This document shows, piece by piece, positions 1 to 41,273 of a stretch of 64,000 bases of DNA; the stretch's first letter is position 1, and each line of letters opens with the position of its first letter. The translations under genes and the position numbers were made by a program. Source of the stretch: Nemertoderma westbladi. Lineage: Eukaryota > Animalia > Xenacoelomorpha. The notes under the pieces are model-generated. The model did not search any database. It was given only the letters and a program-made list of their open reading frames with translations, and had not been told where the DNA came from. Location of the stretch: positions 1-64,000 of the forward strand of contig JAUCBJ010002021.1 of assembly GCA_032718475.1 (NCBI GenBank). Direction: 5' to 3'.

Positions 1-40
1 CACAGCACATGTTAAAGTAAGTAACATCAAGCCCAAATGT

Positions 41-1777: not shown

Positions 1778-3428
1778 CAACATATGGAGTGGGTGTGTGA
1801 CTCTATTATTTTATATTATTATTATTATTTTTATATTTATGTATGTATTACTATGTAATTTTATTATAATCGTTTTATTTAATTTAGTAGAATATTATTT
1901 AGCGATTATTTTGTAGAATAGTGCAATATATTCGTGTTTATTACGTACGTCATTACTTATATTATATTTAGTGCGACGGCGAAGAGATAATTATTTTTTC
2001 TCTTTCCTTACTGTCCGTATTATACTATAAATACGTAACTACAGTAAGATGAAATGTCTGTACTTATTAAAGTACAATAAAGCCACTACTATATTTAGTA
2101 TTATTGGTAGGCAGAGTATTAGGAATGCAAAGTTCAGATCCTCGTGTCTCGGCTAAACCAAGCTCTGGGTAGACCTTGGAAACGACTTGCCTCTTCACAC
2201 TGACATTGCTTCGTGCGATATTGCTCTCATACCGTATATTAAATAATACATATAGTAGCGTGATGTCCCTTTAACAGTAGCGTATAACGCAAAATAAATC
2301 TGTTAAACCCTTTGACCATCTGTAATTCTAGTCGATTAAGATATCGCGGCACCCACCGATATACTTGAAAGACAAATTCTAGAATCAGTGGTTAACGTCC
2401 CCAGACAAGTTCTGGAATAAATCGGTGCCCATCTCAAATATTAATTAATTAATATTTGCAAAATCTAATAAATCAAAAGCTGTAAAATTCAGATCCTTCA
2501 ATAATTCTAGTCAATTAAGATATCGTAGTATTTACCGATATTCTTAAAAAGACAATTTTCTTAGAATTAAGGATCTTGTGCCCCTAGACATGTTCTAGAA
2601 TCAAAATATGTCCATTTAATTATCAAATAATAAAATTTCAGGGAATAAATTTAAATTCATGCCTTTTAATGAATTTAATAAATTGCCATTTTACGCAATT
2701 TATAAAGTTCCCAAAATTCCATTAATTAATAGATCAAGGGAGCGGAGATTTATCTTATCATGCGTATGAGAGTGTGAAAGTCTCCCAAACATAGTTAATA
2801 GCCGATAAAATTCTTAAAGTCATGTATAAACAGGACATTGACTATTAAAGAATTCCTATTAAATAACATCCCAGATCTGTATGCATTGGAATTACTCTAA
2901 TTCTACCGCTAGCTTTGTATAATGTCACCATAGCAACAACCATGCTAGAATTAGAATTGAGTTAAACGAACAATAGAAAGCTTGTCCCATTGAATAACAT
3001 AAGGAACAAATAGCACACTGCTAGTATCCAAGGATACATAATAATACAGTGACATTCTGGAAGGCATTGACTAACGGACAAGTGACCCGAGTGTGTGTAA
3101 TTTGTGACAAGTTGTGTGTGTGGTACTTGTGAGCTTATAGGCGAATGTTACTACTAAGGTGTGTTTACAGTAGCTAGTCGCAATCGTAAAAGTAACCTAA
3201 CTCTCCAAGGAAACCTGAAGTACATCTAAGCCTTTGGGACGGACAGTTGAGTGACTTGTGCCGGTTGTCGTTGTCGTTGTGCGGCTACGTCGTTGGCGAA
3301 AGTACAGCGGCGACGACACATCGGCGCTGAGGATCTCGTACTGTCCGGGGGTTGATTGGGTAGGCAGCGACGCCCGCTCGCCTAAATATAAACTCATTAT
3401 AATATGGATAAACTCATATATAGCAGAT

Positions 3429-4699
3429 ATGACGAAGTTGATGGAAGATGGTCTTGGTATCGGGGAGCGATATACTCTACTTTTACAAGCATTTGTTGAT
3501 AGCTTAATACGCGGCGACGTTAGTCCAACTACATCCAACTATATCGAACCGCCAATGTCCCAAGAGTAGCTCGCGCGATTTGGGCTATAGAAAATTTGCT
3601 GCTCGATATACGCGGCGTAATGGTACGTATATGGGCTTCTTAACTACTGGTCATCCTATCGATTTACACAATACGGACTATGTCGACTATATATCCTGCC
3701 CAGCGGAGTCGGAACCATAAACTGAAATTCGAATGCGAAAATTCTATTCGAAATCGACTCAAAAGAAAAGACACTAAAGAAACAAATGGACGCGGTAACT
3801 CCAACGTATATTTGGAATTCTTGATAGAAGCATTGTAACAACAAATAAATGTCACCCGCGTTTACCCTACCAGACGTGCGTCTTTGGTATTATTACGATA
3901 AATGCCCTAGACCCAACTAATAAACGGAAAGACATAAACATCCACGTAAACCGAAACTTGTTGACGTATCACCTATGCTCACTCGGCTCGAACGATCCTG
4001 GAGTAAACCTACGATCAGAGTCCCGGAATACTCGGTCAAGCCTCCTCATTCCTTAGTTGGACCTCAGACCTGCGATCCTGGTGGTGTCGCGGACCCTCGC
4101 GGACTGTATTCACTGTTCAAAGATCTAGTGCTACCCTAACAATTAATCGGTAACACTCCGACAGTGATTTCTAGCTAGCCGCCCATCTTACCTAGCCGGA
4201 TTGTGACGCGGACACCTAATATCACTATCCAACCGTATGGTCGTCCACGTTTAACGCGATACAACCCCTCATCAAGGTGAAGGAGAGCGTTGTACGAAAC
4301 GAGTTAAACGCTATTTTATAAAGATCAAAAAGGAAACCTGCGTTTGTTCAGATAAACGTAAGTTATAACAGTGAGTCCAATCGATAAACGAATTGGCCTT
4401 ATCTCAATTCGATTGGGAAATCCAGAATCTCTAAGAAGTTATCGAACTTGGACGATCCTATTCTCTGCGAGAGTTTTTGGATGAACGTATCCAGCTACGA
4501 GCGGAGGAAAATCTCTCGAGGAGAAGCATATCGAAACGGCAGATACCTCGACCACAATCCTACACCTTCTGATGCAATCATATTGCACCCTTCACCCAGG
4601 AGTTATGGCCCTCCTAGTAAAGTGGCTCCCCCCAAAGAGAAAAAGACTCTTGCTAGCCTCAAAAAACTGCGTAAACGCCGTCTGCGTAAGAAAGACTAA
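3429..4699 (+). pseudogene. Decayed remnant of accessory ORF3 (N-terminal part + basic C-terminus; exonuclease deleted)
   Basis: MTKLMEDGLGIGERYTL... matches the ORF3 start at 33134, and PSDAIILHPSPRSY...KKLRKRRLRKKD matches the ORF3 end at 37386. Several stops and frameshifts. Confidence 0.85.
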
Positions 4700-4777
4700 C
4701 TGTTTAGAGTATCTTTATGTTTTAGAAACTGTGATTTTTATATTTTATAGACTGAAAATCCCATTTTCTGGGAGCGG

Positions 4778-19061: not shown

Positions 19062-19066
19062 GTTCA

Positions 19067-20235
19067 TGTAAAGGCTTTTGTGTAATTAGCCGGTTATTTT
19101 CCCCGTAAAGTACTCTGTAGTTAGTTTACTAGGCATAAAAAGGCCGTGTCCTTACTGTACTGGTGTTTTAGAGGACATAAAAGTAATTTCTTCTGTAGGT
19201 GTACTTTAGCGGACATAATCCGCAATTTTGTGACGCAATAAGCCGGATCCTCTTGAAAACAGTGTGGCTACCATGACGACGGCTAACAGCTGATATTGCC
19301 ACGTCGAACATTTCTTTGTTCTTTGTTCTCTCTTTGTTCGGTCGACCAATCAGAGCGTTTTTTGACTCTGTGTTGAAGGTTGGATACAGAAACTCATGAA
19401 TTCAGTGTATATGTTTTTGCCCAGAGCCTAAGAACACCGGCTTTTGGCACCTCCGTGTTTCAGTCTTTAGCTTAACATTAGTAGGCTTAATTATAGAACG
19501 TATATCTGTTATCTTATCTCACTTACTTAACAAAACAATCATAACAATTCAATTCAACTACAAACACCGCATTTTTACTGCTTTTACTGTCGGTTATTCA
19601 TTATATTTGTTGATGGAATATTATATCGGAATACTGATCAATAATCAGACACCCCAATCTTCTTGATATACTAAAGGTTAGAGAGACCGGATACATATAA
19701 CGATTGCGACTTACATTAAGTGGTTTGAAGTGAATCTAATGCTATTTCATAGGCCCGACATAAATTGTCTGTTGCTCTCTTTATATGTGACTAAAATTAG
19801 TGAAGGTCGGCAGATTAGTGTGCAGTATTGTGCAGCATTGTGTATGATTGTAACTGATAACAAAGCATCTCCTAAAGAATGCACCATATACGTGAATCTA
19901 TAGCCATTCCGTTGTGTCTAGTTTAAGTCATAACTCTGTTTACATATTTAGAGCGCCACGTCCTAAAGGAACTGTTAATATTTCCCGAAAGTGAATAATA
20001 TTTGTCAGAGATTATATATTACGATCAGTCGAATAATACAGTAGGCTTACACCTCAATCAAGTTAAGCTTCCGAATCCAGTCTCCCGGGTATATCCAGCG
20101 GGTGAATGGTTGTGCATAGACTGGCTTCGGCTAATGTAGTGTATCAAATACTCGTCATAGGCTAAAGACTATCTATCACCTAAAAGACATCCCAATTTGG
20201 CAGGTTAAACTGCTAAAGGTCTAAAAGCGCGAACA
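19067..20235 (+). repeat. 5' LTR of copy C (1,169 bp)
   Basis: TGTAAAGGCTTTT...AAAAGCGCGAACA imperfect terminal inverted repeat; about 10 differences from the 3' LTR by eye. Confidence 0.96.
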
Positions 20236-22135
20236 TTAATAGTTTTTATTCTTGATTGCACGTAGGCAATAAAGTTGAATGTACCGGTCGGACGGTGAAC
20301 TGTAGGCCTAACTGCCCAACCACCCGAACCGGTACTTACAGGTACCCAGTATTATTTCGATTGTGAAATATTGTATATTGTAGGCTGTTAGGGGATTAGG
20401 GATTGATCACCCCTTATTCCTTTGTATGGTTTACTTATTTCTGTCAGTTTTATTTATCTGTAAGTGTAATATTGAGCAGAGGGTGTGTAAGCCTGCTCAG
20501 ATTGTATAAATAATTTGTAGGCCGGATTGTTGTCTAGCTATTGTTAGGTCTGAGGCGATTGCAGTGTGTGTAGAGTGTCTGTCCGAAAAAGTGCTAGTTA
20601 GGAAGGTGGGGGCATCCAGTGCTGTAAGGTAAATCCCCCCCCCCCCCCCCCCGAAAGAATAAGTCGTACTACTCGGTTAGAACGCATACTAACTAACCAT
20701 TTCGGAGTCTGCACATACCGTAGTTTGTTTAGGCTTGATAGTAGTCTGTCAGTATTTAGTCTGCATTTTGTTTGAGTAGTTTGTACGCGTAGCATAATAT
20801 TTATTATTCAGAGTTTATGCGATTATTCGCAACATTCATATCCCCAAGTTTATTCCTGCAGTAATTGTGCTTGTTATACATACCGTTATAGTTAAACTAA
20901 CCCCGGTACTACATCAGGGCTGCTTGGCGTAGGTAAAGACTGGAGATTTTGTGCTTTGGTCACTCCGGCAGATACCGTGGTTCTTTTAGCTGTTCAAGTA
21001 TTTTTAACGACTGATTATTTGTTGTACAAGTACTTGTACCTAATTTAGGGTTTAGTGTACAGTACTTTCCGAAGGCAATTAGTGTGTAGGCAGTATATTT
21101 GTGTTGTAAAGTGGTTAATAGGCACGTTGGTTCTGGTAGACCGCGGTAATTAACTTCTGGGTAGGAACACTCCGTGATACATAATGTAGTACCTATAGCG
21201 ATACGGCTATAGGTCGTCAGACGGTGGTATTTTCCTATCTGGACAACGCAGTATATTTACTACTACTTATTATTTTCAAATACCGTAGTAACCTGTCCGT
21301 TGTAATAACCAGATATTCTAACCCTTTGTTAGGCTGGTTTGTAGATTCCCTGTAAACTTACCCTAAAAATTTGTATTTGTAATTTTTGTGTTTATTTAGA
21401 GATTGTAATCTCACCCCGATTGTACGTAATTTGTAGTAATAAGTAACTTAGGTAAATTAGAATTATTTGTTTTAGTGTCCAACAAGTAGCACTTCACTGA
21501 GAGCGCACAGCTTCTGTGTAGTGACTCCCCCCAGAAATAATAACATTTATTTCAAACATTGACAAAAAACCCATTTCAACGGGTATATATATATTATAAA
21601 TCAACTCAAACGATTTATAAATAGTAGGCCTGCCATATAATAATTAGGTCTAAATATCAGTTGGACTACTGCTTAAATAACGGTAATAAAGTAAGTTAAA
21701 GTAACCAAGTAACCCTTAAAATTCAGAAATTCAATTATTTAAATAATTGATATACCGGTATTCACGATAGGCCTATTATATATTTATAAATTTAGGCTGA
21801 AATTATACCGGTATTCTGTAATTAATTCTAGTTAATAATTATACTTATATATACTATAAGTGTAAACTGCATACCGGTATCCACGATAGGCCTATTATAT
21901 ATTTATATATATTTGTGCTAAAATTATATACCGGTATTCTGTGAAAAACCTAGTCTGTAATAAAATTTATATATACTATAAGCATACCGGTATTCTAATA
22001 TATTATATTATATATATATCAGGCTACACTGAGTAGCAGTATCGGTAATTAATTACTAGGCTAGCAGTTAATACTGAATTACTAGACTTGCTTAGACTGT
22101 AATATAGCAGTAGGCATACAACTGTGCAAACAAAC

Positions 22136-25100
22136 ATGTCTGATACTAAGCAGAACCTGTCAGACAGTTTATTAGATGTAACTATCTGCGACTCAGATAG
22201 GGGTGTAGAACCGTCTAGACCTAAGTTCAGTTCACCTCCCACTGTGAGGAAGGTCATCCCTCCTGTAGTAATATCAGACCCTAGGCTAGTCCAACATCGT
22301 AGGTCTATCATAGGCACTCGAGCTCAGGTCAAGCGGGACCAAGAAGCAGCGGAACAGCAACAACCCGCGAGCCAAGAACTTATTTCTCAGCGGCCCGACA
22401 GCTCCAGTAGTGCGGATACTGAAGAGCTGACACCCGAGCACGGAGCAAAGATGACGGATGCGGTTTATTCGGATCCCCTTCTCATCCTTCCTGCAGCCGT
22501 ACTCACTAGGTTATTGATTGCGGCGGAAGAACACCAGATCGATTGGGCGAGAAATAAGCAATCGACTAAAGATAGTTATGCGGGATACACAAGGGAAGAA
22601 CTGAAGTCTATTGTCGAGTCGCAATGGAACTTCCCCGGACCCGGACTCCCGTTTGATTTATCAGAAGCTGCCTGGGAAGACATACACCGGATGGGAGTAA
22701 CCAAGGAAACCATCGATCCAGCTGTGTGGAAGAGGTCCGCAGCCGGATACGCACAGGGATTCTTCAGCTCTATGGAGCGATCCTAAAGAGGTGAGGTCTC
22801 TATAGGGGGTCGCTAACAGGCGGCGGCGGACTCGTGAGGGTCTGGGGGCACGTTAAATCCCATATATAGTGCAGGGGAGATACTGAAGGCCCTCGTGTCG
22901 TGCGAACCATGAATCAACATGGTGCCGTGGTACCGTCTAGTCAGCCTGTTGCCGTACTGCCAGTCCTGTACACAGTAGGGGTGGTGGCTTAGTGTGATCT
23001 GTGGTTTATGTGGTCTATGTGGTAGGTCTATGTTTGGTATGTATGAGTTGACCAGACTCTTTACTGTCTCCGATCGGTTGCCAAAACGTGTCTTTTCCCA
23101 GGGTAGCACTATTGGAATGGAGGTGTTGCATCGGAATGGACAGGTTTCTGATGATTCCGTTGGTACTACTATTGGAATGGAGGTGGCACCCGGAATATCG
23201 GCTGCAAGGAGGGGTTGGTGTTGTAGTGTGGTCCGAGTGAATGATACTCTGGAATCTGTGGTTTGTGTGTGTACGTGGTATACGTGAGTGTATGTATGGC
23301 CTCTGCGAGTGGGTATGGGAACCCTTACCGGTTGGTTCAGTCGCCGCTGGTTATTAGTAGGACCATATCTTTACTGCGCCCCAGCATACTTTGTGCACAC
23401 AAAGTTATTTTGCCCTGACGGCAAAATAAGGTACTCTCGACTCTTTTATCAGTCGATACAATTTTGTCCCCTCTGATTTTGTCCCCGATTTTGTCTTTTC
23501 CGATTATGTCCTCTGTGTGTGCATGGTATGCGTCAGATTTGTGTTTACCATTGTGTACTTGATTTCGTGAGCATCTATTGAGTACACGTGTACAGTGACT
23601 GGTAAGTGGTTACTTGTTCCTAGCTTTCGAGCTAGTCAGTATTGTTTGCGGAACCGACTTCCCCTCAATACTGCCGGCGAGGCGGGTGAAAATGGTCAAT
23701 ATTCCATGTGGGTAGCGCAAGCCCGCTTGGGACAAGACCGTCGGTTTGGCTCAAGGGCGACCTTGATGCTCGATCGCTATCGACTGGTCCACCCGCCGGT
23801 TGACTCTCTGAGTTGCCTCAATGTACAGTCAGGCCACAGTAAGTTGACAGTAGCCGACCATCTGACTACACCGACGAGCTGTGCCGGTGTGATCGGGGGA
23901 TTGAAAAGTGAACCCAGGAAGCATCGGGCTACCCTACGGCCAGCTTGGTGAACTGGCCCCAAGGGTGGTGGGAAAGCGTCCGCCTCATGGGTGCGCCTCG
24001 GAGTCATCAGAGAGGAGCCCAGAAGGACGCAAGCGTAAAAGAACAACTGTTTCAACAACCCCAAGGACCTCAAGAGCAGGGACAACTGCTTTATCAAGTT
24101 AGAGAAAGAATTCTGCGAATCAGGCTAATCTTATCGGCCTTTGAGGAGGCTTCTAAAAGAAGACAAGACACGTCGTTGCAAGTTGCCGTAAAGACTTGGT
24201 TTCAACGGGTGAGTCTCCAGGTTCAAGGAACGGCTCAGTGGAAAGCTCAGCTGGAGGAGCGCTCAACCCATGGAGAATCAACAGACGCTACTTTTTCCCA
24301 AGTAGAAAGTGAAGCGACGGCAGAGAAACCGTATAAGAGGGATGCCATTGACATCTATCTGTCAGACTATCAGCGTTTTTTAGGAGATGAAGAGTTGAGG
24401 AGAAGGTTAGATGGACTTAGCCCTAATAGTGAAGGAACTCAGCGTGTGTTGGATGCCATCGATGTGGAAATGAGGGCTGCGAACCAGGCTAAATTTGATG
24501 AACGCCTCCGCATCACTAGAGTCCAAGAAGAACAAGTAAAGAAACAACGTATAGAAGACAGAAAGGCAGTGGCAGTAGCAGCAGCAGTGGCAGCGGCAGA
24601 AGCTGAAAGAAAAGCGGCAGCGGCAGCGGCAGCGGCAGAGGCAGAAGCGGAGAGAAAAGCGGCCGAAGCGGAAAGAAAGGCGGCAGTGGTAGCGGCCGAA
24701 GCGGAAAGAAAGGCAGCAGTGGCAGCTGCAGAGGCAGTGGCAGAAGCAGAACGGAGAGCGGCTGAAGAAACCACCCAACTAGAATTGGAAAACATTCAGG
24801 AGAATCAAGACTGCATAAATAAACAGTTAACAGCTAGTCAAATGCAGATGATGGGTCGATCTACTCCCAAAAGACAGGGATATACATCATCTGAGGAAGG
24901 CGATACCACCGATACTGAAGGCAAAGGAAATAGATCTCGTCTAAGCAGACGTAGAAGAACATCACACCGTCAGAAATTGCCTGATTTGCCTCCAGCTGTT
25001 AGAAGGCAACTAAATAACACCAACTTAGGTAGTACAGAACCCACAGACCAAATAATTAAAATAGAAAGACTCCCTACTATAGTAGATGAGCCTGAAATAA

Positions 25101-26830
25101 TTAGTCCTGTTCTTGAAATCACCCCTTCGGTGATAGAGACACCTGTGCTCCCTGAACCTACCTCTAAATTCCCTCTGCACAGCACCAAGCTACCTGTGCC
25201 CAGCAGAACAGCCCATGAGACAGTTCATGTCCTGGACTCCGAGCGTAATATTCATGATTTGTCGCCCGTTGTCCCTCGTCCGCCCGCTACAACGTTGGCG
25301 ACTCCCGCTTCGGCGGTCGAATGGGTGGATGAGAGACGACGGGGGATGGATCTCCTGCTCGGGCAGATGCAGGAGACCGTTCAGCAATTCAAGGGCACAG
25401 TAAGGGAAAGTAGGTTAGAGTTGCAAGAAGTGCAGCAAAGTATCGCGTTAGAACGCGATAAATTAGTAAATACACAAAAGGGTATACCACCACCCTCGGT
25501 AACGATGTGTCAACCTGTTAGGTCTGAAGTATCTCATGCGCAAGGTGTGGAGCCTACACGCATCTATACTGCTAGCGAAGTAGAAACTCCTATAGTGAAC
25601 CCTATTAAGGGTAATTATAGACCTGTTGATAATGATATTCCCTATAGACCTGATCATAATCCGAGAAATTTATATACTGATAACTCGATATTAAATAACA
25701 CGATGGCCCAAGAAAGTTTTACGCGTCAAATGGCTAGAACCGAAGCCCGGCAAGCGGTAAAGGTGGGAGAGATAGTCAAGTTCAATGGAGATGAGATGAA
25801 ATGGTTACCTTTTAATGAATATTATAAAGATAACATACAGAACTCTGTACTATCTAATGGAAAGAAACTTAGATTCCTCATCGAGTGCTTGGAAGGATCT
25901 CCCAAGTTAATGGCGTTAAAGTTTATTGGACATCCAGACGGATTAAGACAAGTTTGGGATACACTAAACATCAGGTATGGTAATAGGAATAACATAGCTA
26001 AATATTTGTATGCAAAATTAGTAGCGCCCCGAAAGTTCATTAGCAGCGGGATAATAGAGTTTTCCGATGAGATTCAAGAGATCTGTAGACAATTAGATTG
26101 GTTAGGTAAGTCTCATGAATATCAGAGTTCTATGGTTATTGGAGCCGTGGCTTCTACTTTACCGAAGGGTGGAGTAGGTACACGCTGGGATAAGAAAGTG
26201 TTATATATGATGGAACAACAACAACGAGACCCTACCATGGCTGATCTCATGTCATTCTTGGATGGCGAAGTGAAATTACAGCTCATAAAGCAGTCCAGAG
26301 AGAAGACACCGGAAAACAAGGTAAGTGAGAAACCCGTCTCCAGGAGAAAGGTAACACCAGTGTGTTATACAGACGACGGCGAAAGCCAGACTTCTCAAGG
26401 AGAGGATAGCGGGAAAGACACTGAAAGATCTTATTATGTCAATAAAATGCCTAAGTAAATTCAAGTCTCGAACCAATGACAGGAGAGAACAGGTAAGAAA
26501 AACTCCTCCTACATCTCCTAAGAGAATTCAGGTGAGAAAGCCCGAAGAAAGAACGAGTGTGCACAATGTTATTCAAAATAAGGTAAGTAACATCAAACCG
26601 AAATGTGCGCTATGTGACAGGACCCACCGTTTGAATATGTGTGATGAATTCCTGAAGAAATCATTAGCGGAGAGAGGGGAAGTCATGTGGGATAAGCGGT
26701 TGTGTTATAATTGCCTCAGACAAGGACACCAATGGCGAACCTGTTACTCTGACACAAGGTGTGCCAAGTGCGGTGCGAAACATCATATCTTGTTGCACAC
26801 TGAATTCGAGCGAAATAGTCCGAGTCAGGT
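22136..26830 (+). pseudogene. gag of copy C (long N-terminal extension, Ala/Glu/Lys coiled-coil repeat, capsid-like region, Zn knuckles)
   Basis: ORFs 22124-22786, 23945-26458 and the start of 26436-29171. Interrupted by a 1.25-kb insertion and by an ~8-nt deletion at ~26450 relative to copy B. Confidence 0.9.
22782..24035. mobile_element. Unclassified 1.25-kb insertion in gag of copy C
   Basis: Removing it restores ...SSMERLKEQLFQQ, matching copy B SSLERLEDHLFQQ. No recognisable ORF, TIR or TSD. Confidence 0.75.
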
Positions 26831-29800
26831 AAGTGATTCCGAACTACATGTCCAATTCAGTGATGTGAACGACACTGATCAATCTGAGATGGTAGGATTC
26901 TATACGGATGAGTTCTCCGACGAAAACGAATCTTGTTACATGATAAATACCGCAGTGTATCGAGCACTCACGTATGAAAAAGATACAGACAGCGACCTCA
27001 CCCTAACTACTTCTGATCAACAACCATCTTGGAAAGCGCCAACTTCCAATGTAGGAATCCGAGAATTTCCTGTAGTACAGGTAAGGGTCCACGGACCTAA
27101 AAGGAGTTATGTAGTGAACGCCCTCCTTGACTCTGGTAGTACAGGAACATTCATCGACAAAGAACTAGCCGAAGACATCTTTGCTGGACAACCCAAGTTC
27201 CGAACTAAGCTAAACATGTCAGGAATTATGCAGGTTTGGAAATCTACAGTAATCGCGGATTATTATGTAGGTGCGTTGTCCACCCCCCAGGATGAACTAG
27301 GAGAACATAGCATAAGGTCAGTGAAAATGGTGGCGATAAAGAACTTCGCTACCACCCAAGTGGAACCTTATAACTGGGACGAGGACGATTTCACCCAGCA
27401 GCTGGAAATACCTAGATTCGACACCGATTACCCTGGAGTGCAAATACTCATCGGTCAAAACGCGCATGAAGCGCTCGAGACATTGGAGAAACGGCCCGCT
27501 CAACCGCAACCATTACAACCTTATGCAGTAAGAACTAGAGTGGGTTGGTACTTTACTGGCCCTTCCCGTAGAACTCTCATGGAAAGATTACTGAAAGATC
27601 AGGTATATCAAGTGCGAGAATGGGAAGTTGAGAACAGTGAGTTAGACGATCCAACTGAGGGAACTCCATACTCCTCAGACAACGACGATATACACCAACT
27701 CTTCGATGAGGAGAATACAATCGATCTCCTTAAGGAAAACGAGACTTGGCAAAACCAAGTGAACTTATGTCAGCTCCTTCGTCCATCAGAACGAGACGAC
27801 TATAACGACGAACTTAATGACGTCATTGAACGTTATAATGCCAAGACTCGGGATGAACACGCCGTACGATTCTTTACTCAAGAGGCTGTAGAGCCCAATT
27901 CCTACGATAAGGCCCTATCGGTAGAGGAAGAAAGAGCCAAGCAGATCCAAGAGACAACTACACGTTTTCTTAAAGATCAAGGTAGATATGAGATCGGGCT
28001 ACCTTTCCGAAAGCGAGAACCAAAGTTCGTAAACAACAGACCCTTGGCAGAGAAAAGAATTGCTCAACTACATCGACGCCTTACGGCAAATTCTTCAGCT
28101 AAAGAAATGTATCAAACGCAGTTGAAGAAGTTTATTAGCAAGGGATATGCGGAGCTAGTACCGGAAGAAACACCTATAACTGAGAGAACGTATTATTTAA
28201 CTCACCATTACGTTCCCAAACCCGGTAAACCAAATGAGGTACGAGTGGTGTTCGATGGCTCCGCCCTCTATATGGGCCAATCCCTTAATTCTGAATTGCT
28301 ACCCGGACCCAACTTACTCCAATCATTGTTGGGAATACTTTTAAGATTAAGACAATATTCCATTGCTTTTGCCTCAGATATAGAAGGCATGTTCTTACAA
28401 GTCAAAGCGCTGGATAGGGATCGAGATAGCCTACGATTTCTGTGGTGGCCTGAAGGAGACCTCAACCAGAAACCGGTGGAGTACTGGATGACCATCCAAG
28501 CTTTTGGGATAATCTCGAGCCCTTCAAACGCCTGTTCCGTGGTGCGCACCACTGCGGATGATAACCGAGACGCCTTCTCTAAAGAGGTGATCGACAATAT
28601 CAAACGAGACATCTACAAGGACAATAATCTAAAGTCCCTTCCATCAGTCGAAGAAGCCATTGAGGTCGCTAAAGGAACGGTAGAGTGCTTAAAAAGAGGT
28701 GGATTTCGATTAACTAAATTCACCAGCAACTCCCGTGAGTTTCTGGAGTCGATCCCGGTAGAAGATCGAGGAGCAAAAGACCTGGATCTAATAAAGGATG
28801 ATCTCCCAGAAACTAAGACCCTTGGTTTGAAATGGGACACAGAAAGAGATATCCTGTTTTTCCAACTAAAACAGCGAGATAATCCAGTTCGGACTAAACG
28901 GATTTGTTTAAGTATCCTGAGCACTTATTTCGATCCATTGGGATTTATTAGCCCAGTTATATTGATTGCTCGGAGTTTAGTTCAACAAATGTGGCTTGAA
29001 AACCACTCATGGGACGATCCACTTAAGGGAGAATTATTAAAGAAGTGGATGAAATGGGAGGATTCTCTACCAGCCATCGAGAACTTTATAATTTCCCGTT
29101 CATATTTTGGTCATGTTCTACGTATTCCTATCAACTCCATGTGTTTGGAGACGCCAGCGATATGGGAATAGGTATAGTAGCCTACCTAAGGGTGGAAACT
29201 CCGGACGGAATCAAAGTCGCCTTGGTTACCTCTAAGGCATTGATAAACAACAAGTTGAAAGTTCCTCGAGCGGAGTTAAAAGCGGCTCTATACACTACAG
29301 CCATCGGCCGGAATGTAACAGAACAGATCGACTATCCACTGGAGAAAACTGTCTATTGGACCGATGCTTTACTCGTGTTGGAGTATATAACCAATGAAGT
29401 CTGTCAGTTCAGCGTCTTCGTTACCAACAGAGTAGCTATTATACTCAGTCGCACAACGATGGATCAATGGAGACATTGCCCCGGAACGATTAACCCAGCA
29501 GATATCGCCTCCAGGGGAGCAACTCCACAAGAACTGGTAGATACTCCAGACTGGCTAGGTGGACCCGGCTTCCTCTACAAAGAAGAAGAAGAATGGCCTC
29601 CTCATCTTACTACCACAGAGATTAGACAGGCCAAGGGAGCGGAGAAAGTCAAACCTAAAACTCGGGCGAGTAAATCGAAGTTATTCAAACCTATGGTAGA
29701 TCTGTCTGTACTACATACTTCCGGAGACGACGCTTTGGATCAGAAACCCACAGCCACAAATAAACTTGTTGTGGAAATCCGTGATAAGGATTGGAAATCT

Positions 29801-31467
29801 GGAATACCAGACGTCTCGCAAGGACTCTCACCTCTTCTGCAGAGAGCGATACATCACTACAGTTCCTGGAATCGACTCTGTAAGGCCGTTACATATTTAA
29901 AGAGATGTTTTCACCATCACTACTCCGGGATGAAAGCCAAAGGTGATACCGCTCCAATAACATCAGTGCAGGTCCATGTTATTAAAGATCTTCCCAAATA
30001 TAAGATACCGACAGGTTTCTGAAGGAGAAGATCAGTTATCAAGAGCATGACGAAACCAACAAGCAGATGCTGAGACTCCTGCAATGCTCTGAGGATTCCG
30101 ATAAGTATTTCCTGTTGTTGAAAAATCCACAGATGCGCTTAAGGGATCGTTTCTCTAGCACAATGATAGATGGGTTGATACGTGTTGGAGGAAGATTAAC
30201 GAATGCGCCATTATCCTTTGACACTAAGTTCCCCATACTCATTAGAAATCTTGAAATACAAGTCAAGATGATTGTAGATGTTCACAGCAAACTTTATCAT
30301 GCTGGTAGAGAACGAGTTCTTAGCGAAATTCGAACTCGCTATTATTTTTATAAACCCCGTAGAGCTCTGAACCAAGTTCTTAGGAACTGTATACCCTGTA
30401 GGAAAGCATTCAGTAGGCCTTTAACACAGCGAGAGGCAGAATTACCTAGGGAACGAGTAAGCTTCTATGAACCACCCAAAACTAATACCGGTGTAGATTT
30501 ATTTGGCCCTATTGAAGTATATCGTGCTAGGACTATAGTCAAGAGATGGTGTGTAATCTTTGTTTGTATGACTTGTAGAGCCATCCATCTCGATATGGTG
30601 AACGATTTATCTACCAACAGCTTTCTATTAAGCTTACGACGACAGATCGCTCGCTTTGGCACTAGTAACACGATGAGATCTGATAAGGGAACAAACTTCA
30701 TTGGTGCCAACAATGAAATCAAAGCTTACGTCAAAGATTGGAACCAAAGACAGGTGGACGATCAGCTACGAGTAACAGCATCTAGCTGGACCTTCAACGC
30801 CGCCGACGCCCCTTGGTGGGGAGGAAGTTGGGAGAGATTAATAAGAAGTGTGAAGACAGCATTTCACTTTATAGTGCCTTGCCGCGCGTATCTCACCGAC
30901 GAACTTTGGCGGACGTTAATGGAGGAAATCGCCGCCTATCTCAACGAGAGACCGCTTATGCCAGTCTCATCAAGTCCCGATTCCCTGGAAGCGCTAACAC
31001 CCGCGCACTTCCTACTGAAGAAACCTGTAGCCATGCTCCCACAATCGGAAATCACAGACGGAGACGAATACTGCCGGCAAACTTGGCAACTTATGCAGTT
31101 GTTATCCCATCGTTTTGCTGACCATTTCGAAAAACATTATCTGCCCACGCTACAACTTCGAACTAAGTGGTTTGCGCAGCAAGAAAACGTCAGCGCTGGA
31201 GACATGGTTCTTATTGTGGATGTAGATCTTCCACGTAAGCGGTGGCAGACAGGTCGTATAATCGAGACTCACATCTCGGATGACGGTTTGGTGCGATCGG
31301 TAGAACTCGTCGTCATGCGACGTAACTTCAAGAAACCGGGAATTGTCTTCGAGACACAGCAGCTCAATCGCCCAGCCCAGTTGGTCGCTTATGTTTACTG
31401 GAAAGAGACAGAGAACTCTCCGGAAACTATGGGAGGCAAGATACTCTCCCCACGACCACCTCCCTAA
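26831..31467 (+). pseudogene. pol of copy C: protease, RT, RNase H, integrase (frameshifted)
   Basis: ALLDSGS (PR); YYLTHH, VRVVFDGS, DIEGMFLQV and non-canonical YKDN (RT); LHVFGDAS, VPRAEL, YWTDA (RNase H); HHCC, GVDLFGP, RSDKGTNF, WGGSWERL, YLPTLQLRTKW (IN). Breaks at ~29110 and ~30020. Confidence 0.95.
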
Positions 31468-33133
31468 TCCAACAAACATCTAGGGACACCCCAACTTAAC
31501 AACGGGTGGAGTGGGTGTATGACTATATTTTATATTTGTTTTATTCTTTTATATTTATGTATGTATTATTATGTAATTTTATTTTAATCGTTTTATTTAA
31601 TTTTATTTAGTAGCATGTTATTTTAGCGATTATTTAGTAGATTAGTGCAATAGATTCGCGTTTATTACGTAATTACTTATATTATATATTTAGTGCGACG
31701 GCGAGAAACAATTCTTTTTCTCTTTCCTTACTGTCCGTATTACATTATAAATACGTGACTACAGTAAGATGAAATATCCGTGCTTATTAAAGTACAATAA
31801 AGCCACTACTATATTCAAGTATTATTGGTAGGCAGAGTATTAGGAATGCAAAGTTCAGATCCTCGTGTCTCGGCTAAACCAAGCTCTGGGTAGACCTTGG
31901 AAACGACTTGCCTCTTCACACTGACATTGCTTCGTGCGATATTGCTCTCATACCGTATATTAAATAATACATATAGTAGCGTGATGTCCCTTTTAACAGT
32001 AGCGTAAAACGCAAAAATAAATCTGTTAAACCCTTTGACCATCTGCAATTCTAGTCGATTAAGATATCGTGGCACCCTCCGATATACTTGAAAGACAAAA
32101 TTCTAGAATCAGTGGTTAACGTCCCCAGACAAGTTCTGGAATAAACTGGTGCCCATCCTAAATATTAATTATTAATATTTACAAAATCTGTCAAATTTTA
32201 GATCCTTTAAAATTCTAGTCGATTAAGGTATCGTAGCACTTACCGATACTCTTAAAAGGACAAAATTCCTAGAATCTAGGATCCCAGTCCCCAGATATGC
32301 TCTGGAATAAAATTACGTCTATTTAACATTAAATAATAAAATTTACGGGAATAAATTTAAATTCATATATTTCAATGAATTTAATAAATTGTCATTTTAT
32401 ACAATTTATAACATTCCCAAAATTCCATTAATTAATAGATCATGGGAGCGGAGATTCACTCTATTAAGTGTATTTGTGTGCGAGAATCTCCAATGTATAG
32501 TCAATAGCCGATAAAATTCATAGAATCATGTATAAAGGGGATATTGACCACTAAAGAATTACTATTAAATAGCATCCCAGATCTGTATGCATGAGAATTA
32601 CCCTAATTCTACCGCTAGCTTTCCATAATGTCACCATGGCAACAACCACGCTAGAATTAGAAGTGAGTTAAAAGAACAATAGAAGGCTTGCCCCATTGAA
32701 TAGCATAGTGAATAAATAGCGCACTGCTAGTATCCAAGGATACATAATAACAACGTGACATTCTGGAAGGTACTGACTAACGGACAAATGGCCCGAATGT
32801 GTGCAGTTTGTGGCATGAATAGTTTGTGGCATGGCGTGTTGTAGGCGAATGTTACTACTAAGGTGTGTTTACAGTAGCGAGTCGCAATTGTGAAAGTAGC
32901 CCTAACTCTCCAGAAAGAACCTGAAGTACATCTAAGCCTTTGGGACGGACAGTGGAGTGACTTGTGCCGGTTATCATTGTCGTTGTGTAGCTACATCGTT
33001 GGCGAAAGCACAGCGACGACGGTACATCGGCGCTGAGGATCTTACACTGTCCGGGGGCAAAAGAGGGGTAGGCAGCGACGCCCGTTAGCCTAATATATAA
33101 ACTCATTATAATATTGATAAACTCATAGCAGAT

Positions 33134-36100
33134 ATGACTGAGTTGATAGAAGATGATCTTGGTATCAGGGAGCGATATACTCTACCTTTACAAGCATTTG
33201 TTGATAGCTTGATACGCGGCGACGCTGGTCCAACTACTATGGAGGATGATGGTCGATATATCGAACCGCCAATGTCCCCGGAGCAACTTACGCGTGAATT
33301 GGATTATAGAAAGTTCACCGCTCGTTACACGCATCGTAATGGTACGTATATGGACTTCTTAACTACCGGCCATCCTATCGATTTACACGATACGGACGAT
33401 GTGGATACCGAAAGGGAAATGGTTTTATTTAAATATCATACCCAGCGGAGTCGGAACGATAAACCAAGAATAGAACACGAGAACTCTATTCGAAACAGAC
33501 TCGAAAGGGAAGACGTTGAAGAGCCGGATAAACGCAGCGACTTCAACGATTATCTGGAATTCTTGAGAGAGACATACCTCAATATTGCCAGTCAACAAAA
33601 TCTCGAAACTCGATATCCTCAAGGTATACATCATGATCCTATGATAGAACTCAAACGACTCTATTTCACTATGATGTATCTTACCGCCGATCGACCGCTA
33701 CCTGTCGTCCCAGATAGCTTCGAACAGATGGAGGAATATTGTAAAACTGGAGAACGATCACCCGCGTTTCCTCTGCAGGACGTGCGTCTTTGGTATTACT
33801 GCGACGAATGCCCTAGACCCAATCAGCAAACGGAAAGACATAAACATCCGCGGAGACGTTGCGCTAAACACAGTTTTACACGATATACTTATGGGAGTTT
33901 CGAGCGAAACCTGTTCGACGTATCCCCTACGGTCGCTCGACTCAAACGATCCTTGAACAAACCGATGATCAGAGTTCCGGAATACTCGGTCAGACCTCCG
34001 CATTCCTCAGTTAGACCTCAAACTCTTGATCCTAATAGTATCACGGATCCTCCCGAACTGTACTCACTGTTCAAAGATCTAGTGTTACCCGAACAGTTGA
34101 TCGGTGGCACTCCGGTAGTAGGCTCACTAGATATTCGCCAACCCTACCTAGCTGGATTGGGACGCGGTCATCTAATATCGCCGTTTAACCCATACAACCG
34201 TCCCGGCTTCACCTCGATCCAACCCGTTACGGAAGTCGAAGAGAGCGTCGTACGAAACGCATTAGACGCTATTCGGCAGAAAATCGGAAAAGGAACGTAC
34301 GATTGTTTGGAGAAACGTAAATTGCAACAACAAGTCCAAGCGGTGAAGGAATTAGCTTTCCCCAGTTCGATAGAGAAATACAAAATCTCGAGGAGGACAT
34401 CGAACGTGGACGAACCTACTCTTTACAAGAGTTCCTAGATGAGCGTCTACAACAACAAGCGGAGGAGAATCAGCTCGAGGAGAGACATATAGAACTGGAT
34501 GAGAGAGAAGAAGCAGCTTTAGCTCAACCCGAAGCGCAAATCCTTATGACGGATCTCTACTCTAAAACCATCCTTCATCCCTCGATGGTTCCCCATTTCG
34601 GAGACAAACTTTTTGCGACGGCACAACCCCAACCGGTTGATATCAACCTAAGATCTCGAGATCTTATCGCTGACGCTCCCATGTTGCAGCGTCCGCCCAT
34701 CGAAGCCGCTCGTGTTGATGGTATACTCGTTGAACCTCCCGACAATAGAGCGGATCTTGTCCGTCGCATGGTACACGATGTAAACATACGCGCTAGACCT
34801 TTACTGGACTCGTTTTATGGGATCAAAGATCACCCTTATTACGTCAATCTAGCACAATATTACATGGTAAAACCGGAAGATCCTACACATAGTCTGAAGT
34901 TTCTACCACTAATAAATCCTCTCGATCTTGTCGAACTCGAACAACTGCAGAAACATCTGGATCAGTTAGTTAAAGTAAACTCATTTCGAAAACCATATAA
35001 TGTTTCCAGAATAGAGAAAGAAACAATACCTCCGTATAATCTTGATGGATTCATCAAAACTCATTTAGTGCACTGGAATCTTGACGTGTTATTCGAGGAA
35101 GAAAGAATACAACGATATGGAGATGTGGAAACCTATACCACACAATATTTAAAGTATAGAGACCTACCTAATGCTAGCGAATGCGCTACCTTGTGGCATC
35201 CTGTGGGAATGACACTCGAAAATGCCACAAAAGAGTGGAACGAAACTCTTAACGTTATCGAGATGTATGGAGTTGTCACTTACGATAACGAAGGTAGCGT
35301 TCCGGTTGGAGAACTTGGAACTACGCGGATGATACACATACGAGGACTCGCTGGTTCTACCCACGTATTTACTCGAGCGTGTTCCGATGTGATTGATTAT
35401 TCTTTTGAAACTCTTACTGAGACACAAAAGAAACTCCGACATGGACAATTCGAACTCGCGCAGCGTTACGTCACCGATACCGAGCGCAAACCGGCCATGG
35501 GTATCGATGGATCGATGTTACCCCAACCCGTGCTCGAGATGTTGTTTAACGAAAGAATCCTTAAAATCGGCTCAGCTGTTTATGGAGACCTACAGAACGA
35601 CTTTCGGAATATGGAGAACATTCCATACCCCTTCGTTGATACTCAGCTGATTGCTCCCTGGGCAGAAGGCCGAGGTTTCTTCCGCACTATGTATGCCAAT
35701 ACACCCAGCGGAATTACTAAAGTACAACGAACCTCCATCGGACATCTTGCCTTTCAAGAATACAGATGGAATTTCAAGGTTGGAAATCCTATCAATTGCC
35801 AACAAGTATACAGAGATCATTATTCTCGTTTATACTTTGATGGACCATTGACCGCACCTGGCGCCATGTATAGCTTTATGAGTGTTCCACTCCGTCCCTC
35901 CTTAGCTATATACACGATCTTTGAAAACGCAGCACTTGCCGGTTGGCTAGCCGATGTGTGCAGTCGTACCATACGCGCCCATCCCTTAATACTTGGAACC
36001 AAACTCGCCAAGTTAGATGAACACAATAAATTCATCCGCTTCGAATGTTTCAGGCGCTTTCTGACTCCGTTCCGTAACGTTGATAGTCAGTTCAAGGACC

Positions 36101-37386
36101 GCGCTCTGACCAAACTCAGCCTAAGAGACTCGGCTGCGGAGAAGCTAAACAGCGCGGGATTTGCCCTCTTTCAGGACGTTTGTATACAGAACTTACATTC
36201 ATCTGTTATACAAAGACCCCGAATACCCACGGGTTATTCTGTCGTGGAAGTTCAGACAGTGGGTCCGCTTGCGGAGACAGCCGCACCTACCTCAGCTATG
36301 CAATTGGAAGACGAACCAATATGCTTAGAAGCTGAAGAGATTCAGCCTACAGCGCCCCGGAGCAGGGATAACGACTATATCTTAGAGTGGTATCAAGGTC
36401 CACAATGTCTCACCGCATACGATTATCGACACGCTAAATATGTTTCTCGAAAACATTGTCGATTATGCGCATCGAGAGACCATTTCACCCCTATGGACTC
36501 AGACGTACCCTGCTCCTATTTCCACGAACACCCGATGATGGAGATATATTGTGCGTATTGCAGACTTAATAACTCTCATATTTTTGCAGTCTGCCCCCAA
36601 TTTATGACTCAATGCCACCACTGTCAACTTAAAGGACATGCCAGTTATAATTGCCCCTTTAATCGCGATTTAGAGAGCGTAGATGAGATGATTACCCTGC
36701 GCTACATCCGAGCTTGGGAAGCGAACGCGGATTTACATTGTGAGTCCCGCCATCGCTACTACCCTGGACGCTCTTACGAGGGAGTTTACGCGTTCCATCC
36801 TTATTTATTTGCGTCTGTGGAACAAAAAACACGCACACCGAGTTACGAGATAATGAAGCGTGTTGGTGAGTGTATTTCCACCAAATTTGTTCGAAGATAT
36901 CTTAGGAACGTCAATCCTAACGATATTACTTCATACCATTTGATTAATTACATCCGTCAAGACCCTGAGTATGGCGATTTATTTATCAACTCGCACCCTG
37001 AGTTACAGGAAGTATCTCGACGGCCCTACGAATATCGAGCCCGAGAACGTGAGCTGGAAAGAACCATTAAACCAAGGAAGTTTCTCACCACTCACGGTCC
37101 GCCTACCGCCATTGTCCAGACGACCCGTCAAGGACCCGTAGGAGCTGCTGTCCTAAGACGCGCCCTAAAGGCCGTTAGACCTCGCTCCACTGAAGTTGAT
37201 ATCGATCAACCAGGTACCTCGACCGGCGGATACACCGATCGCAATCCGAAACCTTCTGATGCAATTGTATTGCACCCTTCACCCAGGAGTTACAGCCCTC
37301 CTAGTAAAGTGGCTCGCCCCAAAGAGAAAAGGACTCTTGCTAGCCTCAAAAAACTGCGTAAACGCCGTCCGCGTAAGAAAGACTAA
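33134..37386 (+). CDS. Accessory ORF3 (~1,420 aa; split here into 434 + 946 aa by a 1-nt deletion): DEDDy 3'-5' exonuclease-like domain, 3 CCHC-type knuckles, basic C-terminus
   Basis: VVTYDNEG; LPQPVLEMLFNERILKIGSAVYGDL..FVDTQLIA; SIGHLA; PLRPSLAIYTIFENA; CHHCQLKGHASYNC. Copy A reads through the junction in one frame (ELALSQFD versus ELA-FP/QFD). Confidence 0.82.
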
Positions 37387-37464
37387 CTGTTTAGAGTATT
37401 TTTATATTTTAGAAACTGTGATTTGTTATATTTTATAGACTTAAATCCCATTTTCTGGGAGCGG

Positions 37465-38634
37465 TGTAAAGGCTTTTGCGTAATTAGCCGGTTATTTTCC
37501 CCGTAAAGTACTCTGTAGTTAGTTTACTAGGCATAAAAAGGCCGTGTCCTTACTGTACTGGTGTTTTAGAGGACATAAAAGTAATTTCTTCTGTAGGTGT
37601 ACTTTAGCGGACATAATCCGCAATTTTGTGACGCAATAAGCCGGATCCTCTTGAAAACAGTGTGGCTACCATGACGACGGCTAACAGCTGATATTGCCAC
37701 GTCGAACATTTCTTTGTTCTTTGTTCTCTCTTTGTTCGGTCGACCAATCAGAGCGTTTTTTGACTCTGTGTTGAAGGTTGGATACAGAAACTCATGAATT
37801 CAGTGTATATGTTTTTGCCCAGAGCCTAAGAACACCGGCTTTTGGCACCTCCGTGTTTCAGTCTTTAGCTTAACATTAGTAGGCTTAATTATAGAACGTA
37901 TATCTGTTATCTTATCTCACTTACTTAACAAAACAATCATAACAATTCAATTCAACTACAAACACCGCATTTTTACTGCTTTTACTGTCGGTTATTCATT
38001 ATATTTGTTGATGGAATATTATATCGGAATACTGATCAATAATCAGACACCCCAATCTTCTTGATATACTAAAGGTTAGAGAGACCGGATACATATAACG
38101 ATTGCGACTTACATTAAGTGGTTTGAAGTGAATCTAATGCTATTTCATAGGCCCGACATAAATTGTCTGTTGCTCTCTTTATATGTGACTAAAATTAGTG
38201 AAGGTCGGCAGATTAGTGTGCAGTATTGTGCAGCATTGTGTATGATTGTAACTGATAACAAAGAATCTCCTAAATAATGCGCCATATACGTGAATCTATA
38301 GCCATTCCGTTGTGTCTAGTTTAAGTCATAACTCTGTTTACATATTTAGAGCGCCACGTCCTAAAGGAACTGTTAATATTTCCCGAAAGTGAATAATATT
38401 TGTCAGAGATTATATATTACGATCAGTCGAATAATACAGTAGGCTTACACCTCAATCAAGTTAAGCTTCCGAATCCAGTCTCCCGGGTATATCCAACGGG
38501 TGAATGGTTGTGCATAGACTGGCTTCGGCTAATGTAGTGTATCAAATACTCGTCATAGGTTAAAGACTATCTATCATCTAAAAGACATCCCAATTTGGCA
38601 GGTTAAACTGTCAAAGGTCTTAAAAGCGCAAACA
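37465..38634 (+). repeat. 3' LTR of copy C
   Basis: Near-identical to 19067-20235; preceded by a short purine tract GGGAGCGG and followed by the TSD GTTCA. Confidence 0.96.
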
Positions 38635-38639
38635 GTTCA

Positions 38640-40149: not shown

Positions 40150-41273
40150 TGTTCGCGCTTTTAGACCTTTAGCAGTTTAACCTGCCAATTTTAGTTGTCC
40201 TCTTGTTTATAAATCGACTTTAGCCTATATCAATTACCTAGTGTACTGAAGTTACATCAGCCAAAGCCAATCCGTGCGCGACCTATCACCCACGGTTTTG
40301 GGAGACTGGATTCGGATTCCTTGAGAGCGATTGCGGTGTAGACCTACTGTATTATTCGATTGATCGTTACTATATAATCTCTGACAAATATATTTACTTT
40401 CGGGGAAATATTAACAGTTCCTTTAGGACGTGGCGTTTTAATTATAAAAACAGAGTTATGACTTATACTAATCACAACTAGATGGCCACAGAGTTTCGTA
40501 AATAGCGCATTCTTTAGGAGATGCTTTATTAACCTTCACACCACTTCACACGACTTCACACTACTTCACACTAATCTGCCGACCATCACTGAATTTGATC
40601 ATATATAAGGAGGATCGCAACTGACACATGTAGGGATTATGAAATAGCATTTAATTCACACAAAACCAATATAATGTAAGTCACAGTTGCTACCGGTAAA
40701 CCTGTTCCTCTTACCTTCAGTAATCAAGAAGATTGGGGGTTTTATGATTATTTATCGGTATTCTCCAAATATAACAGCAATAGCCATTAACATAACAACA
40801 ATTAATAACAGAAGTAAAATAATGCGGTGAACAGTCAGTATGTGTTACATAATGCATGAAATGTTGTATGAAATATGTGTTCCGATGTGCAGTGAGATGC
40901 GGTGATTCAGTTAATAGTTTTACGTTCTTATAATCAAGGCCATCTGATGTTTCCTAGGCCAAAGTCTGAAACTTCTACACAGAAGCACAGAAAATTCCGA
41001 GCTGGTTCTGATGCTCAGAAAAAGGTAAACAAAGACCGTAATGCATTGCGAGGGTTTCCATAGGCCTCTGTCAGACATAAAGGGAAAATTGCTCTGATTG
41101 GCTGAATGGAGCAGAACAAAGAAAAATTCCACGTCCACAAAGAATCAGCTGATAGATTTCGTCACACCAGCTCCAATCCCTTCCCGTCGTGTAGATGGAT
41201 AAATTTAGGGCTATTTTAGAGTATTCTGCGCATTGCGGAAAAATGACTTGTTATGTCCGCAAAAGCTTTTACA
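40150..41273 (-). repeat. 5' LTR of copy B
   Basis: Minus strand TGTAAAAGCTTTTG...AAAAGCGCGAACA; GTAGG TSD adjacent. Confidence 0.94.

Follow-up and report, generated by a model that had tools for sequence, protein, structure and literature searches.

A large BEL/Pao retrotransposon of Nemertoderma westbladi with a selected accessory gene predicted to encode an RNase D-like domain followed by three Cys/His knuckles

What does the long open reading frame behind the integrase of a very large retrotransposon in Nemertoderma westbladi encode, and why is it kept? The window, the whole stretch of 64,000 nucleotides of contig JAUCBJ010002021.1 (assembly GCA_032718475.1), contains an element of 19,568 bp with LTRs 99% alike, flanked on both sides by the 5-bp target-site duplication GTTCA (19062..19066 and 38635..38639). 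The 5' LTR (1,169 bp, TG...CA, 19067..20235) and the 3' LTR (37465..38634) share 99.06% identity, with 10 mismatches and one gap between them. On the same forward strand lie the gag region (22103..26458; DUF1759, E=3.6e-11 in Pfam), the gag end and pol (26355..31467), an AT-rich spacer (31468..33133) that is non-coding and contains two ~165-bp repeats, and the third open reading frame, ORF3 (33134..37386). The pol part holds Cys/His knuckles, protease (a weak match to Asp_protease_2), an RT region, Pao RNase H (Peptidase_A17, E=1.5e-16 and 4.8e-14) and integrase (Integrase_H2C2, and DUF5641 with E=7.8e-20). These Pao-type domains in the order PR, RT, RH and IN, together with the LTRs and the target duplication, bear out the BEL/Pao identity given in the preliminary description. 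The very large genome of ~18 kb reported there also stands, at 18.3-19.6 kb versus 4.2-10 kb described for the family (PMC8742986); the accounts of the family give a median of 7.4 kb and a maximum of 22.8 kb among automatic calls (PMC8742986, PMC3118150).

As far as those accounts describe Belpaoviridae/Semotivirus (PMC8742986; de la Chaux and Wagner 2011, PMC3118150), its members share with the present element the LTRs, gag, PR-RT-RH-IN, Pao-specific Pfam domains and an optional third gene, which is env-like there whereas the one here is nuclease-like. Unlike in known Belpaoviridae, a TGG-type tRNA primer site is not visible: no tRNA-Arg/Gly primer-binding site was found after the 5' LTR, where an AT-rich run without TGG stands, as in copy B, and a direct search for a self-priming match of this run to the LTR found none. 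The integrase used as query had no match among viral contigs. The gag region is split by a 1,254-bp insert (22782-24035) that is absent from other copies, which join across the insertion point. In addition, gag-pol has three frame changes, the RT catalytic motif reads YKDN and Pfam did not detect RVT_1 in pol. The examined element, with neither an intact RT motif nor an open gag-pol, is a decayed copy, and this decay bears on its activity, not on its BEL/Pao ancestry.

ORF3 lies after integrase (end 31467) and before the 3' LTR (37465), inside the GTTCA-bounded element, in agreement with the placement first proposed. It is split over two sense frames that overlap, 33101-34438 (with its first ATG at 33134) and 34321-37386, giving ~408 and ~1008 codons on the two sides of a single break near 34,360. 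Because another copy, copy A, crosses the position of this break in one frame, a single ORF of ~1,416 aa is likely the state of the family, close to the ~1,420-aa accessory protein claimed earlier. Of the env-like features sought in ORF3, signal peptide, membrane anchor and fusion-protein homology, none was found; the 19-residue hydropathy windows reach a maximum of 1.19, so that no membrane segment is present, and no Pfam family matched. Judged by these properties ORF3 is not env, as had been stated. A Cys/His cluster, CDEC...H...C..H, a putative zinc site, is present near its N-terminus (33800..33871, forward strand), but has no family match in Pfam. The basic C-terminus KKLRKRRPRKKD (37348..37383, forward strand) was likewise located as described and is a predicted nuclear localisation signal.

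The middle of ORF3 (35200..35970, forward strand) is predicted from profile, alignment and structure-atlas matches to be an RNase D-like domain of the DnaQ superfamily. The quoted motifs of a WRN/Mut-7/EXD/RNase D-type exonuclease were all found in their places: VVTYDNEG at 35272-35295, ILKIGSAVYGDL at 35557-35592, VDTQ at 35635-35646 and YTIFENA at 35911-35931. On the forward strand, the ExoI Asp lies at 35284-35286 and its Glu at 35290-35292, the ExoII Asp at 35587-35589, and the ExoIII Tyr at 35911-35913, followed at 35923-35925 by the claimed Glu in place of the usual Asp. A distant protein, P0002, has the same layout of nuclease and three knuckles and shares these D-x-E, D and Y-x3-E residues with ORF3; although they are only ~27% identical, neither protein has lost the Tyr or any of the four acidic positions. 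This link has E=4.9e-4 across the whole library and is one of three matches at that level. Another of the three, P0001, was dropped as a low-complexity false match.

Homology to RNase D was found with several profiles. The NCBIfam RNase D model matched the domain with E=0.0032, and hhalign aligned the pair of ORF3 domain and P0002 to E. coli RNase D with E=5e-5 and the ExoII Asp in register. When 301 bacterial genomes were searched with a profile, 66 had matches, 63 of which began at profile positions 104-117, and all 30 of the best matches checked fall inside RNase D genes. In the ESM Atlas, the ORF3 domain and P0002 scored 0.92 and 0.94, with PF01612 in 24 and 25 of 30 matches, respectively. 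With an RNase D profile made from 30 sequences that had been chosen without ORF3, ORF3 scored 11.2 bits versus at most 1.6 in 500 shuffles, and here the ExoI D-x-E was in register with both RNase D and P0002. The ExoII Asp is invariant in 56 of 56 alignment rows. Membership in the DnaQ superfamily is, from these comparisons, almost certain.

The statistical homology lies mostly in the ExoII region. Two insertions cause the ExoI and ExoIII of ORF3 to match the RNase D register only in some alignment modes: ExoI is in register in two of four modes and out of register in the alignment with 54 bacterial PF01612 rows. P0002 aligns with RNase D at all three motifs in four of four modes. The pattern PL-x6-Y-x3-[DE], which also arises in 230 of 5000 shuffles, is weak taken alone and leans on P0002, which has PL-x6-Y-x3-E in common with ORF3. 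Another possible ExoI, near 35395, lacks the Glu and was discarded for that reason. Pfam found no exonuclease family in ORF3, including the DNA_pol_A_exo1 match that had been expected, and HRDC was not detected; PDB sequence searches with the domain gave chance matches only, and PHROGs weak ones only. AlphaFold on the single ORF3 sequence reached a pLDDT of 30.8. A second model, from an alignment including the 54 bacterial PF01612 rows, which are misaligned at ExoI and ExoIII, reached 61 and was confident around ExoII only; its WRN/RNase D fold matches were not counted, since a model fed RNase D rows makes them circular.

The domain resembles the RNase D/Rrp6/WRN/EXD/Mut-7 enzymes (PF01612) in the ExoI D-x-E, the ExoII Asp followed by P..DTQ and the PL-x6-Y before ExoIII, and differs from them in the ExoIII Glu for Asp, the two insertions, the attached knuckles and a similarity below Pfam detection. 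With Y-x3-E and not the canonical Y-x3-D in both ORF3 and P0002, the motifs place the domain as DEDDy-like, not as a canonical DEDDy member. Because P0002 carries the same residues, the replacement of the fourth Asp by Glu probably characterises the lineage. No report of a Klenow D501E variant that stays active was found in the literature searched. The reading frame of the domain is unbroken in the examined copy, and we lean narrowly towards a catalytically active enzyme.

Three Cys/His knuckles follow at 36457-36654. All are present as claimed, but only the third is the canonical CX2CX4HX4C, the first being CX2CX4HX9C and the second CX2CX5HX4C. The zf-CCHC match expected for them appeared as zf-CCHC_3 with E=0.01, but fails the Pfam family cut-off. 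Among known structures, the P0002 knuckles resemble those of retroviral nucleocapsids (E about 1e-4) and, with a weak score, Air2 (E=0.064); those of ORF3 are predicted to bind RNA. Together with a conserved downstream stretch (36457..36840, forward strand), the triple knuckle module also occurs in proteins outside the element, in P0002 and, twice, in P0003. Length-limited word-indexed protein searches gave 3,426 candidates for ORF3, 0 at E<=0.001, and recovered P0002 alone with the ORF3/P0002 pair alignment and P0003 alone with P0003 as query. Scans of viral contigs, metagenome contigs and phages found no relatives, and a plasmid scan found one match only, at E=6.

Is ORF3 a gene of the family, or a host gene fragment carried passively? 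Copy A, offered earlier as proof of membership, retains a decayed remnant (3400..4700, forward strand) with the N-terminal part and the tail, but a deletion there has removed the counterpart of 34495-37223, and with it the nuclease and every knuckle. Family membership and selection rest on contigs of four public runs. Among the 40 differences listed, beside which there are 331 further ones, 27 are synonymous versus 22-33% expected (P<=7e-6; rough pN/pS 0.2), and the excess is strong in both ORF3 halves. The count over all 40 is the figure relied on; a post hoc split at 99%, chosen after seeing the table, gave 27 synonymous changes among 35 segregating differences and none among 5 near-fixed ones, all from the same listed set. 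The five motif codons show one difference among those listed, a synonymous one. Against copy A, the N-terminal part of ORF3 has 80/297 third-position versus 102/613 other differences (P=2e-4); the spacer 31468-33133 shows no codon-position bias (P=0.74). The synonymous excess among the listed differences supports purifying selection on ORF3 across the family, as a family gene that is not neutral, and ORF3 is very probably maintained for a function. In runs X4 and X5, contigs pass directly from 33501 to 36306, and in runs X1 and X3 from 34494 to 37252. Copies without the nuclease thus exist, and ORF3 is dispensable in cis. These deletion derivatives, the missing Pfam match and the low single-sequence pLDDT would suit a passive fragment or a protein with no exonuclease relative. 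The synonymous excess in both halves and four lines of homology (ESM Atlas, NCBIfam, hhalign and the 301-genome profile search) stand against this very improbable reading, which is already largely refuted.

ORF3 thus reads as a selected accessory gene whose product carries three Cys/His knuckles behind an RNase D-like domain. RNA silencing is the main check on animal retrotransposons, and Mut-7/Nibbler-type enzymes trim small RNAs. We propose that the ORF3 nuclease acts mainly in blunting host RNA silencing of the element, to which we give a probability of about 40%. As the 1.67-kb non-coding spacer parts ORF3 from pol, a separate, subgenomic message may be made. The basic tail would drive nuclear import of the product, its knuckles would bind RNA, and the D-x-E, D and Y-x3-E residues would bind metal, making it a likely RNA-directed 3'-to-5' nuclease. 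Speculatively, it might act on antisense RNAs, on small RNAs, or on the ends of RNAs from the element where these supply the silencing machinery. A silencing-related role was also raised for rotifer DEDDy ORFs (PMC5408684). Against the proposal stand fold relatives such as EXD1 and Maelstrom, described in that account as non-cutting members of RNA pathways. Among the public runs listed with the element, none is recorded as RNA.

The Glu at the fourth acidic position, with the knuckles and the basic tail, would also fit a weak or non-cutting nuclease, in which case ORF3 might bind the long genomic RNA as an adaptor for its export, transport or stabilisation, in the manner of Egalitarian/EXD1 or of CERV, a protein of Cer1. 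CERV, a separately encoded nuclear accessory protein, is required for genomic RNA export as its report describes (PMC10309623). A genome of 18 kb would presumably depend on efficient export. Four acidic positions and a Tyr kept at the low identity to P0002 are more typical of a metal site in use, and we regard this reading as tentative.

The nidovirus exonuclease permits a larger genome, and ORF3 might similarly trim RNA or cDNA 3' ends or proofread for the reverse transcriptase. The size of the element beyond the family range suits this, and 3'-end processing was proposed in the accounts of the rotifer ORFs (PMC5408684) and Dada transposons (PMC3706591). However, ORF3 is separate from Pol with no evident path into the particle, much of the extra length is ORF3 itself and non-coding spacers, and its nearest sequence matches, 30 of 30 best checked, are RNases and not polymerase proofreading domains. 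This role is unlikely, and proofreading is the least supported among the three functions proposed earlier. The knuckles suggest single-stranded substrates, and arenavirus NP exonucleases are of the DEDDh type; both points make it quite improbable that ORF3 clears double-stranded RNA or cDNA by-products to keep innate sensors silent, although the arenavirus NP exonuclease, of the same superfamily, is described in that role (10.1101/2021.02.01.429129, PMC3429428).

The precedent named for rotifers is real: ORF3 of Juno, Vesta and Terminons (Rodriguez et al. 2017, PMC5408684), as described there, is also a non-env third ORF after pol, RNase D-like and DEDDy-type with an altered acidic motif. That motif is DEED by its description, whereas the present one is D-E-D-E with Tyr. 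The rotifer hosts are the bdelloid LTR retrotransposons Juno and Vesta and the Terminons, and the host here is BEL/Pao; the present ORF3 is set further apart by its ~1,416-aa product, in which the nuclease is fused to three knuckles. Purifying selection is seen here, whereas for the rotifer ORFs that account detected no significant deviation from neutral evolution inside the genome (PMC5408684). The nematode precedent named with it was not found, the word 'nematode' having 0 occurrences in PMC5408684. Dada DNA transposons of Laccaria and Ectocarpus also carry a DEDDy exonuclease, but inside the DDE transposase and with all four DEDD residues by their description (PMC3706591). CERV of C. elegans Cer1 is, by its description, comparable to ORF3 in that an animal LTR element encodes it separately as an accessory protein and in that it has a role in the nucleus; RNA export was demonstrated there, and the available account states no nuclease domain (PMC10309623). 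We found no literature report of a DEDDy-type ORF3 in BEL/Pao.

It is possible, if doubtful, that a large BEL/Pao lineage encodes an active D-E-D-E RNase D-like enzyme with a triple knuckle module that suppresses small-RNA or nuclear-exosome silencing, which would help explain its very many copies and would be a further independent capture by retroelements. The published rotifer cases are extended to another superfamily, with evidence of purifying selection that was lacking in the rotifer study. ORF3 would offer a naturally occurring D-E-D-E version of the active site. Anti-silencing proteins are known from few animal retrotransposons, and ORF3 is a concrete candidate in an abundant BEL/Pao family.

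ORF3 (33134-37386, plus strand) is a genuine, selected, non-env accessory gene that combines an RNase D-like domain with a triple zinc-knuckle module. The surrounding BEL/Pao element measures 19,568 bp (19067-38634), which includes a 1,254-bp gag insert (22782-24035) that has no second copy in the window and across which contigs from other element copies join; with the insert subtracted, the length is 18,314 bp. Window self-comparison revealed an LTR pair (19067-20235 and 37465-38634) with 99.06% identity over 1,170 columns (10 mismatches, 1 gap). Both LTRs start with TG and finish with CA, and GTTCA lies on either side of the whole element. The Pfam domains DUF1759, Peptidase_A17, Integrase_H2C2 and DUF5641 follow in BEL/Pao order. 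This copy is decayed, as gag-pol contains three frame changes and the RT motif reads YKDN. No TGG-type tRNA primer-binding site was found after the 5' LTR (20236-20262); the AT-rich run there has no match of at least 8 bases to the element's own LTR and recurs at the corresponding place (about 40119-40149, minus strand) in copy B, a further copy of the family. The leader before gag (20236-22135) is about 1.9 kb long, non-coding and 84-86% conserved in copy B.

The element is nested within copy B, an internally deleted minus-strand member of the same family, which self-comparison places in two parts split by the insertion (15302-19066 and 38635-40763), its LTR parts being 98% alike. A decayed copy A occupies 1-6010 by the same comparison. 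Pfam searches also identified a truncated minus-strand LINE with endonuclease and RT (5977-8284), a LINE ORF1-like minus-strand frame of 264 aa with a weak baculovirus FP-like match (12649-13443), and a fibrinogen C-terminal domain frame (42784-43572, E=1.1e-6), which is probably a host exon. A 21-bp repeat array lies at 14841-15150, and 59545-64000 is a satellite whose ~50-bp units form a 99/149-bp higher-order structure.

The integrase ends at 31467 and is followed by a 1.67-kb AT-rich spacer (31468-33133), which contains two ~165-bp repeats (32014 and 32178) conserved in copy A and may provide ORF3 with a promoter or with splice signals. ORF3 itself comprises a pair of sense frames, 33101-34438 and 34321-37386 on the plus strand, which overlap, and a TATA-like run is seen about 40 bases upstream of its ATG. 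The window copy changes frame near 34,360, but copy A stays in a single frame at that position, so the family state is likely a single ORF about 1,416 codons long. The motifs quoted in the preliminary description were all found in place, and its view that ORF3 is not env-like holds, with no membrane segment (maximum hydropathy 1.19) and no env match in the family search. It had also cited a remnant in copy A; an ORF3 remnant is present there, but copy A lacks 34495-37223 and is therefore silent on the nuclease and knuckles.

The expected Pfam exonuclease match to ORF3 did not appear even at E=10, and a PDB sequence search with the domain returned chance matches only. NCBIfam gave an RNase D match spanning the ExoII region (E=0.0032). 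In the ESM Atlas the domain scored 0.92-0.93, with PF01612 on 24 of 30 matches, a lead only, as the 160 shared features fall below the tool's guide of 170. Searching 1.84 billion representatives yielded three matches at E<=0.001. P0001 was dropped as low-complexity noise. P0002 (648 aa, unnamed, ENA) carries a nuclease followed by three knuckles, with pairwise E values of 1e-10 and 1e-5. P0003 (633 aa, unnamed) carries the triple-knuckle module twice; its N-terminus resembles a decayed exonuclease. No Pfam family was found for the knuckle module and the conserved stretch downstream. The window and P0002 domains were combined into a profile, which matched RNase D of E. coli with E=5e-5. Run against 301 bacterial genomes, this profile found matches at E<=0.1 in 66, of which 63 fell in a single profile region; all 30 fetched matches lay inside RNase D genes. 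In the reverse test, a profile was built from 30 sequences, namely RNase D of E. coli and 29 others chosen by Pfam alone; its score was 11.2 bits for ORF3 and 7.4 for P0002, versus at most 1.6 for 500 shuffles. AlphaFold models of the domain gave no independent support and were not counted.

The ORF3 stretch is present, whole or in part, in five of the seven public runs listed (four studies), none on record as RNA. Contigs over the 1.5-kb nuclease-plus-knuckle stretch number 5,296 in X1, 2,047 in X3, 60 in X4 (organism A) and 25 in X5 (organism B); X1 is possibly the window's own source. Many are less than 90% alike, and only four indels are listed, in one contig apiece. Among the best-supported 40 of 371 differences, which are tool-picked, non-independent events with 331 further ones outside the listing, 30 are third-position and 27 synonymous, where 22-33% would be expected (P from 1e-9 to 7e-6; pN/pS roughly 0.2), with 15/20 synonymous in the nuclease and 12/20 in the knuckle region. 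Against copy A, the N-terminal part of ORF3 differs at 80/297 third and 102/613 other positions (P=2e-4); the spacer has no codon-position bias (P=0.74). Beside these figures, it is very improbable that ORF3 is passive cargo. Deletion joins in contigs (33501 to 36306 in X4 and X5; 34494 to 37252 in X1 and X3) count against a need for ORF3 in cis.

All 56 alignment rows share the ExoII Asp, and the ExoI D-x-E is in register with RNase D in the RNase D profile comparison and in two of four modes of a further alignment. At ExoIII, P0002 is in register with RNase D in 4/4 alignment modes and also aligns pairwise with the window protein, whose ExoIII is placed through this bridge; the PL-x6-Y-x3-acid spacing is identical in all three. 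Both the window protein and P0002 have Glu at the usual Asp position. This Glu is probably the family state, because its codon shows no difference among the 40 listed of 371 and one loose-end row (two X1 contigs) also reads Glu. The proposed DEDDy assignment therefore stands in part: RNase D homology is supported by NCBIfam, the ESM Atlas and the profiles, but by its sequence the domain is DEDDy-like and fails the strict ExoIII test, since Glu replaces Asp. Four acids and the Tyr are kept between the window protein and P0002 at about 27% identity, which favours a metal site in use. The odds that the domain would be catalytically active seem slightly better than even, and a non-cutting export or transport adaptor is a possible but somewhat unlikely alternative.

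The rotifer precedent mentioned in the preliminary description is real and published: PMC5408684 describes DEDDy-like ORF3s with a DEED motif in the LTR elements Juno and Vesta and in Terminons, their function untested and with no significant departure from neutrality, an account repeated in PMC6431247, PMC5718144 and PMC6338049. In Dada DNA transposons a DEDDy exonuclease lies inside the transposase (PMC3706591), whereas the DEDDy-like domain of the window element is in ORF3. The ICTV profile gives BEL/Pao genomes of 4.2-10 kb with env-like third genes only (PMC8742986), in contrast to the non-env third gene and greater length found here. PMC3118150, PMC6238403 and PMC12440569 do not contain the word 'exonuclease' in their main text. 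The concept thus has precedent, and no report of such a gene in BEL/Pao was found in a search whose scope ended short of most subscription papers, Repbase, Dfam, GyDB and the PMC3118150 sequence supplement.

ORF3 would probably be expressed from a separate message, because the spacer parts it from pol. The P0002 knuckles resemble those of nucleocapsid and Air2, which bind single-stranded RNA; clearance of double-stranded by-products is a distinctly improbable role. The basic tail is predicted to act as a nuclear signal. A replication or proofreading helper appears an improbable role. The simplest reading, to which we assign a probability of roughly 40%, is that the ORF3 product would be an RNA-directed 3'-5' nuclease acting outside the particle, which would aid the element by trimming silencing RNAs or eliminating them.
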